DNA of 64,000 bases from an uncultured archaeon (GTDB lineage Archaea > Asgardarchaeota > Thorarchaeia > Thorarchaeales > Thorarchaeaceae), in contig CAZVZC010000001.1 of the NCBI GenBank assembly GCA_964631415.1, positions 100,638 to 164,637 on the forward strand, read 5' to 3'. This document shows positions 6,879 through 58,535 of the stretch, piece by piece. The translations under genes were made by a program, and so were the position numbers. The notes under the pieces are model-generated. The model was not told where the DNA came from, made no database searches, and worked only from the letters and a program-made list of their open reading frames with translations. Within the stretch, counting starts at the first letter, position 1; each line of letters begins with the position of its first letter.

Positions 6879-7901
6879 ATGACCTTCTCAATTCTCAGGG
6901 ACGGCCCTGACATACTGAATGCACCCGTAGAAGAGGCGGACCAGGCCGCGACAGAGGGGTTTGAGAGGAGAGTACAACACTTCGGTAGCAGTCTGCTGTG
7001 CTACAGTCCCACATCATATCCATACAGAATCAGAGATCACAGGCAGACAACCCCTACGAATTTCATATCGCTGAGCGTCACAGGCAGAGCCTGTTCCCTG
7101 AACTGCGCTCACTGTAACGGACGTCTTCTTAGAGGAATGGAACCAGTGCTCACCCCAGAGGCCCTCGTCAAAAGATGCAAGGAAATCAAAGCGCAAGGTG
7201 CTGAGGGCGTGCTCATCAGTGGTGGGTCTGACACTGAGGGTCATGTTCCACTCGCTCGTTTTGCTGAAGAGATCTCAACCATCAAGAAGGAGATTGGACT
7301 GAAGGTCGTCGTTCATACAGGTCTTGTGGATGACGACACTGCTAGGATTCTGGCCAAGGCGCAGGTAGATGCAGCGATGCTCGATGTGGTAGGTGACGAG
7401 CGTATAGCCAGAGAGGTATACCACATTGAGAGCGGTCCCGCCAAGATGGACAAGTCACTTGAAGCCCTAGCAAGGAACGGTGTTCCTACCGTGCCACACG
7501 TCCTTGTCGGCCTCAACTACGGACAACTCGGCGGCGAGCTTGAAGCGTTGCACTTGATCTCCAGGAGGGCCCCTGCTGCTGTGGTCATCATCATTCTCAG
7601 CCCTATCAAGAAAACAGCCATGGAGGGCGTCAAGCCGCCGGCACCTGCCATTGTCGGCCGTTTCATGACCATAGCTCGGCTCGGGCTGGAGAGAACTCCT
7701 CTCTTGCTGGGCTGTGCCCGACCTATTGGAAAACACAAGATTGAGTCCGACAGGTTCGCTGTCAAGAGTGGCATGAACGGAATCGCGTACATCAGCCAAG
7801 AAGGAGTCGACCTTGCCAGAAGCATGGGCCTGAAGCCCGTGTTCAGGGATGTCTGCTGCTCACTTGTACCTCATGATCTGATACAGGCATCCTCCTCATG
7901 A
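6879..7901 (+). CDS. lipS1: radical SAM protein, archaeal lipoyl synthase LipS1-like
   Basis: CSLNCAHC motif plus C-terminal GCAR and CC motifs described for LipS1. Confidence 0.7.
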   Translation: MTFSILRDGPDILNAPVEEADQAATEGFERRVQHFGSSLLCYSPTSYPYRIRDHRQTTPTNFISLSVTGRACSLNCAHCNGRLLRGMEPVLTPEALVKRCKEIKAQGAEGVLISGGSDTEGHVPLARFAEEISTIKKEIGLKVVVHTGLVDDDTARILAKAQVDAAMLDVVGDERIAREVYHIESGPAKMDKSLEALARNGVPTVPHVLVGLNYGQLGGELEALHLISRRAPAAVVIIILSPIKKTAMEGVKPPAPAIVGRFMTIARLGLERTPLLLGCARPIGKHKIESDRFAVKSGMNGIAYISQEGVDLARSMGLKPVFRDVCCSLVPHDLIQASSS

Positions 7902-8421
7902 TTCCGCCTGCCACTTCGTAGCCAAAGTCTAGAGCCCACATACCCAATGCAGTGGGAAAGAACGAGGGCCAAACCAAGGCGGAAAGCAGTACAGCACATT
8001 TCAGGGTGAAGCGGTACCTGAAGAAGAAATGTGCTCGGGAGTTCTGTTTCATGTCAGTCCAATCGTGACCCCGTTCATCGAATGCTGCTGCGAGCAGCAA
8101 TGCCATGACCAAGACTAACCAGTTGACCCAGTTGATGACATTGGGAACTCCCCTGATAGCCAGCACGGCTCCAATGAGAAGAAAACCAATCACGAACTGT
8201 GGCTTGTTGACCTTGCCTGTGAGAAGCACGCCAATGACTATCGCGGTGAGCAAGGCCAAGTCCCATTCTGAGAGGCTCATGATCACGCCAAACAGCACGC
8301 CAGATAGGGCTAAGGGAAACCAAGCGAAACCGGGCCTGTCCAGCTCATCAAGCAGATCATCGCCCATCTTCAGAGTGAGGCCTGCCAACCAGTACATGAC
8401 AAAGTAGACAATCCACCACAC
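7843..8421 (-). CDS. multi-pass membrane protein of unknown function
   Basis: About six hydrophobic segments; Asp-rich KMGDDLLDE and DERGHD loops. Confidence 0.7.
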   Translation of the reverse strand: MWWIVYFVMYWLAGLTLKMGDDLLDELDRPGFAWFPLALSGVLFGVIMSLSEWDLALLTAIVIGVLLTGKVNKPQFVIGFLLIGAVLAIRGVPNVINWVNWLVLVMALLLAAAFDERGHDWTDMKQNSRAHFFFRYRFTLKCAVLLSALVWPSFFPTALGMWALDFGYEVAGGIMRRMPVSDHEVQVSSRHP

Positions 8422-8471
8422 CCTCTATCATCTCACAAGTGCCGAGATTGGAGTGGCTCCTCAGACTCACC

Positions 8472-8529
8472 TCAGCTTAACTATGACTCATCATTGGACT
8501 TACGTCCTAGGATAGCCTTTGGTCATCAT
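8472..8529 (-). ncRNA. box C/D methylation guide sRNA
   Basis: Minus strand: C AUGAUGA, 12-nt guide, D' CUAG, hairpin GAC-GUAA-GUC, C' AUGAUGA, 12-nt guide GUCAUAGUUAAG, D CUGA; the D guide is antisense to rRNA H69 UAACUAUGAC. Confidence 0.8.
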
Positions 8530-8590
8530 TGGATAGTCCAAGGGACTCCTCCAAAGGAACTGAATATCCCGATAAAAGATGTTGTTGGAC

Positions 8591-8875
8591 TCAGAGAAGG
8601 GCCACGGGCGTACCCAATGCCTGTCCGGGTAGGTTAGTTCGGAACTTCGCACGGACCGCCCCACTGTTTCCATGCACGCCGAGCACCTTTCCAAGGAACT
8701 CGCTTCCTGATGCAGAAACCCACTTGATGTCCCGACCAACAAGGACTGCGGCTCCACTCTTTGATTCGACACCATCAAACTGCAGAATGACTTGGCCATG
8801 GTGCTGGAGGTGCTTTCCTCTACGATAGCTAATAACGACGCCCTTGCGGCCTTTCATCACATTGCTTGTAGACAT
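8591..8875 (-). CDS. rpl35ae: 50S ribosomal protein L35Ae
   Basis: GVVISYRRGKHLQ...GKVLGVHGNSGAVRAKF..NLPGQALG; start taken at ATG 8875. Confidence 0.93.
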   Translation of the reverse strand: MSTSNVMKGRKGVVISYRRGKHLQHHGQVILQFDGVESKSGAAVLVGRDIKWVSASGSEFLGKVLGVHGNSGAVRAKFRTNLPGQALGTPVALL

Positions 8876-52682: not shown

Positions 52683-52791
52683 TGGTAGCCCCGCCAGGGT
52701 TCGAACCTGGGTCGGCGAGGGTCTTCACCCCATAGGCTCGAGGCTATGTGGTTCCAAAACCCGCCATGCTGGACCACTACACCACGGGGCT
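52683..52791 (-). tRNA. tRNA-Gln(UUG) with 33-nt intron at 37/38 (52721-52753); CCA encoded
   Basis: AGCCCCG acceptor, GGTTCGAACCC T arm, BHB-like junction; 76 nt after splicing. Confidence 0.92.
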
Positions 52792-58136: not shown

Positions 58137-58254
58137 TGGTGCGGAGGGAGGGATTTGAACCCTCGATTCGAGCGCTCAAGCAAGAGCTAGGAGCGTACCC
58201 CTACGAGACAGGCGCCTCAGGCCTGCGCCTTTGACCTAGCTTGGCAACCTCCGC
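58137..58254 (-). tRNA. tRNA-Leu(GAG) with 30-nt intron at the 3' end of the variable arm (58167-58196); CCA encoded
   Basis: GCGGAGG acceptor, CAGGC-CT GAG GC-GCCTG, long variable arm, T arm GAGGG TTCAAAT CCCTC. Confidence 0.9.
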
Positions 58255-58426: not shown

Positions 58427-58535
58427 TGGAGCCTCGGGCGGGATTTGAACCCGCGACCTTCCGCTTTGACGGCCTGTGAGGGTGTGGCTCACAGAGCTTA
58501 CGAGGCGGATGCTATAGCCTCTAAGCCACCGAGGC
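58427..58535 (-). tRNA. tRNA-Thr(CGU) with 33-nt intron at 37/38 (58466-58498); CCA encoded
   Basis: GCCTCGG acceptor, TCCGC-CT CGT A|A-GCGGA, intron hairpin CTGTGAG/CTCACAG. Confidence 0.92.

Follow-up and report, generated by a model that had tools for sequence, protein, structure and literature searches.

Helices 68, 69 and 71 of the large-subunit rRNA are a known hotspot of predicted archaeal box C/D methylation, placed 'around A1912' (PMC4644070). The archaeal guides closest to the locus described here, Sac-sR113 of Sulfolobus acidocaldarius and IHOsR91 of Ignicoccus hospitalis, are catalogued in Dennis et al. 2015 (PMC4644070, additional file 1). In eukaryotes, snR63 of yeast, SNORD46 (U46) of human and CD4 of Dictyostelium direct 2'-O-methylation of the corresponding helix 69 (H69) adenosine, which is Am2256, Am3739 and Am2522, respectively (PMC2794176, PMC8817022). 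Yeast Psi2258 corresponds to E. coli position 1915 (PMC2794176), and therefore Am2256 corresponds to A1913. C/D RNPs have a spacer of ~ 12 nt and a substrate limit of 10 nt (PMC7229835). C/D guide sets turn over fast, and it is uncommon for archaeal groups to share precise sites (PMC6009581). The literature searched yielded no paper on Asgard C/D sRNAs and no Asgard rRNA modification map.

The window, that is, the whole 64,000-nucleotide stretch of Thorarchaeota DNA that was analysed, contains an unannotated box C/D guide RNA gene. The gene occupies 8529-8472 of the minus strand and is flanked by rpl35Ae and by a gene for a membrane protein. The element is confirmed as a genuine box C/D guide RNA gene. 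Its parts were delimited with alignment A1, which comprises 18 sequences (the host copy and 17 orthologues) and from which covariance model R1 was built. In the order of transcription, the features of the locus are:

8591..8875, minus strand: rpl35Ae (eL33) gene, immediately upstream of the sRNA (Pfam PF01247 Ribosomal_L35Ae, E = 1.6e-19)
8571..8577, minus strand: TATA-like element TTTTATC, candidate promoter of the sRNA (the motif recurs in Thorarchaeota loci)
8531..8552, minus strand: extended terminal stem, 5' strand (MFE fold of 8552-8446, partner 8450-8471)
8523..8529, minus strand: box C, AUGAUGA (sequence reading; UGA core invariant in alignment A1)
8512..8522, minus strand: D' guide CCAAAGGCUAU, apparently a weakened helix 70 guide, N+5 = C1934 (alignment A1, core GGCUA kept)
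8508..8511, minus strand: degenerate D' box CCUA (alignment A1; final A invariant, third position G or U)
8496..8507, minus strand: internal hairpin GGAC-GUAA-GUCC between D' and C' (4 pairs, covariation)
8488..8494, minus strand: box C', AUGAUGA (sequence reading; G3, A4 and G6 kept in 46-47/47 Thorarchaeota copies)
8476..8487, minus strand: D guide GUCAUAGUUAAG, 12 nt (positions 3-11 pair with 23S U1911-A1919; N+5, U8480, opposite A1913)
8472..8475, minus strand: box D, CUGA (sequence reading; GA invariant in 67/67 copies)
8450..8471, minus strand: extended terminal stem, 3' strand (MFE fold and covariation)
7843..8421, minus strand: downstream syntenic membrane-protein gene (tblastn synteny, 17/17 Thorarchaeota loci)

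The original prediction had placed a box C/D sRNA at exactly 8472-8529, and boxes C, C' and D read as it stated. It had also described a complete layout with two 12-nt guides. This holds for the D guide but not for the other half of the molecule, where the D' box departs from the consensus CUGA and the guide is 11 nt long. A 12-nt D' guide would need CUAG as the D' box, and the alignment with the 17 orthologues sets D' as CCUA (8511-8508). A single A separates the internal hairpin from box C'. The 2.16 Mb genome has a single match to the strict layout (RTGATGA, 20-36 nt, RTGATGA, 11-13 nt, CTGA), at the 8529-8472 locus, and the counts of this layout in ten shuffled genomes were 0,0,0,0,0,1,0,0,0,0 (~ 0.1 per shuffled genome). 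At gathering thresholds, Rfam yields only three tRNAs in the 64-kb window and no family reaches the gathering score at the sRNA locus. Of the 14 sub-threshold matches in a permissive scan of the locus (E up to 10), 12 belong to box C/D snoRNA families, all of them minus-strand. Three overlapping ORFs, at 8494-8637 (+), 8500-8799 (-) and 8529-8828 (+), were rejected as genes; they are out-of-frame shadows of rpl35Ae and the spacer. The downstream membrane-protein gene has no match in Pfam.

Two side observations concern the genome at large. The single strict-layout match suggests that this mesophilic-type genome has few canonical C/D sRNAs, a count that leaves degenerate boxes aside and is no census. 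The three tRNA genes found by Rfam (52686-52791, 58140-58254 and 58430-58535, minus strand) are 105-115 nt in length, probably contain introns, and were all missed by ARAGORN at default settings.

A BLAST search against 60 relatives located the element in many genera. Model R1 detects one copy in 80 of the 86 genomes of the family and gives significant matches in at least eight other Asgard families. The model retrieves Asgard members down to E ~ 0.07; the Atabeyarchaeum copy was missed by R1 and found by pattern scan. Exact-pattern scans of ~ 185,000 species returned Thorarchaeota, Heimdallarchaeota (two complete Heimdallarchaeum genomes included), Njordarchaeota, Promethearchaeota CR_4 and Atabeyarchaeum, plus a handful of bacterial chance matches. 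In an alignment of 67 copies fitted to the model, 92% of the helix cells are paired, compared with 70% in shuffles, and double changes occur in 11/11 pairs of the two helices combined. The terminal helix accounts for 7/7 such pairs, and all 4 pairs of the internal D'-C' hairpin, whose cells are 97% paired, show compensatory changes. The terminal stem of the host copy is extended, 8552-8531 pairing with 8471-8450 (MFE fold of 8552-8446, z = -2.99). The guide is better conserved than the flanking gene ends.

The original prediction had proposed, as checks, a search for orthologues behind rpl35Ae and for conserved boxes in relatives. Both were found, as the boxes are kept and the sRNA sits between rpl35Ae and the same membrane-protein gene in 17/17 Thorarchaeota loci. 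Linkage to rpl35Ae extends to Asgard families f2, f15 and f18 (labels of this analysis) and to Atabeyarchaeum, and is absent in families f5, f9 and f17 and in the Thermoproteota loci examined. In most Thorarchaeota and Heimdall copies the C'/D' motif is closed by a covarying 4-5 bp hairpin with a D'-C' spacing of 12-16 nt, where archaeal sRNAs usually have a short K-loop; the spacer has stayed short in families f2, f15 and f20.

The target of the D guide was sought in the host 23S gene (G000:C7:37371-40453), which lies on another contig of this metagenome-assembled genome. Its H69, GGGAC-UAACUAUGA-GUCUC, is identical to that of the Thorarchaeota consensus genomes (24/25; G022 differs). Counted from box D, positions 3-11 of the D guide (UCAUAGUUA) make an uninterrupted 9-bp Watson-Crick duplex with U1911-A1919 of the H69 loop, which corresponds to nucleotides 2042-2050 of the host LSU rRNA. 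The host H69 is thus complementary to the guide, and the predicted pairing with the H69 loop stands. The predicted 10-mer UAACUAUGAC does not; the duplex has 9 bp rather than 10 because the host has a G at 1920. Guide positions 1, 2 and 12 are mismatched to the host H69, position 2 as an A-C mismatch, and most relatives form 10 bp. Outside the sRNA itself, the genome has no exact 12-mer complement to the D guide. The fifth guide position lies opposite A1913 (host A2044, G000:C7:38410), in agreement with the predicted N+5 site and its equivalence to the Am2256 modified by snR63. A lone 9-mer match to the 7.5 kb of stable RNA (rRNA and tRNA) carries a chance of ~ 0.1 per guide, so the case for this target rests on comparative data and not on the host genome alone.

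Across the 47 Thorarchaeota copies, D guide positions 3-11 show no variation but for a single base in one sequence, and positions 1, 2 and 12 vary; the conserved positions are exactly those paired with the H69 loop. Positions 4 and 5 are U in 67/67 copies. The guide also follows the rRNA where the latter changes. In 5/5 genomes with G1910 in the rRNA, position 2 of the guide is a C. Among the 23 genomes with C at 1910, from Thorarchaeota and Heimdall families, the base at position 2 is A or a G that pairs with C1910, and C does not occur. A C at position 10 goes with G1918 in the rRNA, and in genome G060, with A1918, it is replaced by U. The conserved core of 9-10 nt fits the 10-nt substrate limit of C/D RNPs (PMC7229835). 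On this comparative evidence, the D guide most likely directs 2'-O-methylation of A1913 in H69. One Thorarchaeota genome (G022; loci L034 and L090) has A1910-U1920 instead of C-G as the H69 closing pair, and its guide carries A2 and U12, uncompensated.

The original prediction had named no target for the D' guide; relatives supply one. The D' guides of most Thorarchaeota form 7-10 bp with UAGCCAA(AUG) at E. coli 1931-1940. The partner of their core (U)UGGCUA is UAGCCA(A) (E. coli 1931-1937/40), where helix 70 begins, such that the N+5 position is C1934, and in genus g12 the rRNA change A1937U is matched by a U-to-A change in the guide. The D' guides of the Heimdall family f5 pair with AAUGCCUUGU, with N+5 at G1940. 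Those of families f9, f17 and f18 pair around CUUGCCGG, with N+5 at G1945, the equivalent of yeast Gm2288 (snR75), and the family f9 guide follows its own lineage-specific rRNA, UUGUCUAGU. Judged from these pairings, the Asgard sRNA family is a double guide in which the first target is fixed and the second slides along H70/H71. Loci L111, L112, L116 and L120 of families f9, f17 and f18 combine in one sRNA guides for A1913 (Am2256/snR63) and G1945 (Gm2288/snR75); in yeast the equivalent sites are served by separate snoRNAs.

The host D' guide pairs only through positions 1-6, with G1930-C1935 (U-G, A-U, U-A, C-G, G-C, G-C), and falls short of the 8 bp taken as the minimum for a second guide to H70/H71. 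The D' box of the host and its sister genome G002 is CCUA or CUUA, and that of relatives is CUGA, CCGA or AUGA. The six-position pairing together with the degenerate D' box makes D'-guided methylation doubtful in both genomes, and the host D' guide would appear to be a decayed helix 70 guide. The final A of the host D' box allows one sheared pair, the consensus G being lost. Kink-turns with U at the position of the D' consensus G, such as Kt-23, are known. The invariant final A of D' and the conserved C' box suggest that the D'/C' motif still binds L7Ae. Other candidate targets of the host D' guide, LSU 399-409 (8 pairs, one of them G-U), LSU 965-975 (7 bp) and tRNA-Gln (7 bp), were rejected, none being above chance for 7.5 kb.

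A longer complementarity was noted on the D' side. The stretch GGCUAUC(C/U)UAGGA, within 8496-8522 (minus strand) in the host and at locus L004 in G002, is complementary to rRNA 1923-1935 over 12/13 positions in the host and 13/13 in G002, G-U pairs included, and reaches from the end of the D' guide across the D' box into the first part of the hairpin. Replacement of G by U in the D' box, seen repeatedly in several genera, allows an additional pair with A1927. This complementarity may represent accessory base-pairing beside the H69 target or may be coincidence (post hoc p about 0.01).

The original prediction had described the sRNA as hosted downstream of a ribosomal protein gene. The linkage is real, being conserved in Thorarchaeota and a few other Asgard lineages, but 'hosted' overstates it. 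The TTTTATC element (8577-8571) lies 14 nt past the rpl35Ae stop codon, and in most orthologous Thorarchaeota loci an A/T-rich motif of the TTTTAT(C/G/T) type precedes the terminal stem by 22-32 nt. Since this TATA-like box lies between the stop codon and the sRNA, transcription from its own promoter appears more likely than hosting by rpl35Ae. The protein partners of a C/D RNP are encoded in the host genome. Genes for fibrillarin and Nop5 (PF01269 and PF01798) are adjacent at G000:C8:50828-52314, and PF01248 has two matches, representing L7Ae-family genes. The adjacency of the Nop5 and fibrillarin genes is as in many archaea.

The following mechanism is proposed, and as a whole is regarded as probable on the basis of sequence comparison. 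The gene, with a core of ~ 60 nt or ~ 100 nt when the long terminal stem is included, would be transcribed from a TATA-like promoter of its own, situated immediately past rpl35Ae. Kink-turns formed by the C/D and C'/D' motifs would bind L7Ae, upon which Nop5 and fibrillarin would assemble. The D guide would pair with nascent 23S rRNA at the H69 loop (U1911-A1919), so that A1913 (host LSU nucleotide 2044) would face the guide nucleotide five positions upstream of box D and be 2'-O-methylated there by fibrillarin. The partner of the D' side would be the neighbouring strand of helix 70 (G1930-C1935). C1934 is the nucleotide that the D' guide is expected to methylate in most relatives; in the host, the D' half is more likely to serve only as a second protein-binding platform, possibly with a role as an accessory anchor beside the H69 target.

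Three other explanations of the locus were weighed against this mechanism. That the boxes are a chance set of motifs in an intergenic spacer, with no RNA gene, would agree with the lack of a curated Rfam family at gathering score. This explanation has a negligible probability, as the layout has no second occurrence in the genome and seldom arises in shuffles, the sRNA is single-copy and syntenic in 80/86 relatives, both helices show compensatory changes, and the guide is better conserved than the flanking gene ends; for practical purposes it is refuted by the comparative data. A different target for the D guide, instead of or besides H69, was considered in the D-loop of tRNA-Pro(UGG), where CUUGGCUAUGAU of the predicted tRNA-Pro can pair with the entire 12-nt guide (9 Watson-Crick and 3 G-U pairs). 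However, the N+5 pair would then be a U-G wobble, and the U found at guide positions 4 and 5 in all 67 copies suits the A-A of H69 better than the G-G of the tRNA. Moreover, C appears at position 2 precisely in the genomes with G1910 in their rRNA, position 10 tracks rRNA 1918, and position 12 is sometimes a U or C that leaves the tRNA unpaired. The tRNA-Pro D-loop is thus very improbable as the target, and was rejected in view of the guide-rRNA covariation.

The third explanation retains H69 as the target but sees the sRNA mainly as a folding chaperone or anchor for H69-H70 of pre-23S rRNA, with methylation weak or absent in the host genome. Such a role has been proposed for double guides (PMC4644070), and several properties of the host copy agree with it: the D duplex has only 9 bp and a mismatch at position 2, the D' guide is decayed, the segments bound by the D and D' sides (1911-1919 and 1930-1935) are separated by only 10 nt, and in G000 (the host) and G002 the complementarity of the D' side extends through the degenerate D' box to rRNA 1923-1935. 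On the other hand, the conserved core keeps one register to box D throughout Asgard and Thermoproteota, as expected of a methylation guide; mere pairing would not require this. In addition, the GA of box D and G3/A4 of box C' are near-invariant, and 9 bp is within the usable range of a 10-nt maximum. A role mainly as chaperone is therefore considered improbable, and guided methylation of A1913 is the preferred reading.

Sac-sR113 and IHOsR91 carry a D guide, UCAGAGUUAC, that pairs with the H69 loop of their own rRNA, GUAACUCUGA, in the same register as the host guide, such that N+5 is A1913; this target was derived in the present analysis from the published sequences. Their guide letters follow a different H69, with CUCUG as opposed to CUAUG. 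IHOsR91 and many Sulfolobales and Bathyarchaeia copies are double guides with a second target in H70/H71, like the Asgard family. In IHOsR91 and Sulfolobales the second guide pairs with rRNA ~ 1942-1950 and its N+5 position is near G1945 by alignment, while the Bathyarchaeia differ. Unlike in these, the second guide of the Thorarchaeota lineage has moved to C1934 and is nearly lost in the host genome. The Thermoproteota copies are without rpl35Ae linkage, and their likeness to the Asgard sRNA is known from boxes and guides. A species-wide scan for the Thermoproteota version of the guide matched 55 archaeal contigs, in Bathyarchaeia, Nitrososphaeria, Sulfolobales, Thermoproteales and Desulfurococcales, and gave two bacterial chance matches; many of the archaeal matches are double guides whose second target falls in the same zone. 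In four loci (L204, L213, L215 and L221; Thermoproteales and Thermoproteota MAGs) CUGA, a short spacer and UGAUGA come after the H69 guide. The apparent location of the H69 guide in the D' position in some Thermoproteota suggests swapping of guide halves within the family.

These comparisons bear on the suggestion in the original prediction that the sRNA is an Asgard guide for a modification shared with eukaryotes. The shared site is borne out, whereas exclusivity to Asgard archaea and eukaryotes is not, as many Thermoproteota have a guide in the same register. In Asgard and Thermoproteota the H69 guide is old and widespread; the site shared with eukaryotes is real and not Asgard-exclusive, and the finding gives no support for a special Asgard-eukaryote innovation. 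What the finding contributes to annotation is a well-supported non-coding gene overlooked by Rfam and by ORF-based pipelines; guides of this kind, in the same register, were already catalogued. The sRNA offers a concrete predicted methylation site that is testable in cultured Asgard archaea.

Among the other Asgard orthologues, those of Heimdallarchaeum, Njordarchaeota, Promethearchaeota CR_4 and Atabeyarchaeum share with the host the D guide core, its register, the terminal stem and mostly the internal hairpin, and the orthologues differ from the host in the D' target, which is G1940 in family f5 and G1945 in families f9, f17 and f18. The eukaryotic RNAs snR63, SNORD46 and CD4 are nucleolar, unlike the archaeal sRNA, and RNAs of this type are longer and often intron-encoded. 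No similarity to SNORD46 or snR63 was detected beyond the boxes and the guide, and neither is among the Rfam matches of the sRNA at E up to 10. The target held in common with eukaryotes can be explained by an old archaeal site, and orthology is not shown by the target. It is unlikely that a single archaeal double-guide lineage predating the Asgard-Thermoproteota split gave rise to snR63/SNORD46 and, via the second guide of some Asgard lineages, to snR75 (Gm2288), with the host D' half perhaps having changed from methylation guide to eukaryote-style accessory antisense element beside the H69 target. The target and register of the guide are kept across Asgard and Thermoproteota, at a site that is methylated in eukaryotes too, which would mark Am1913 in bridge B2a as among the oldest RNA-guided rRNA modifications.
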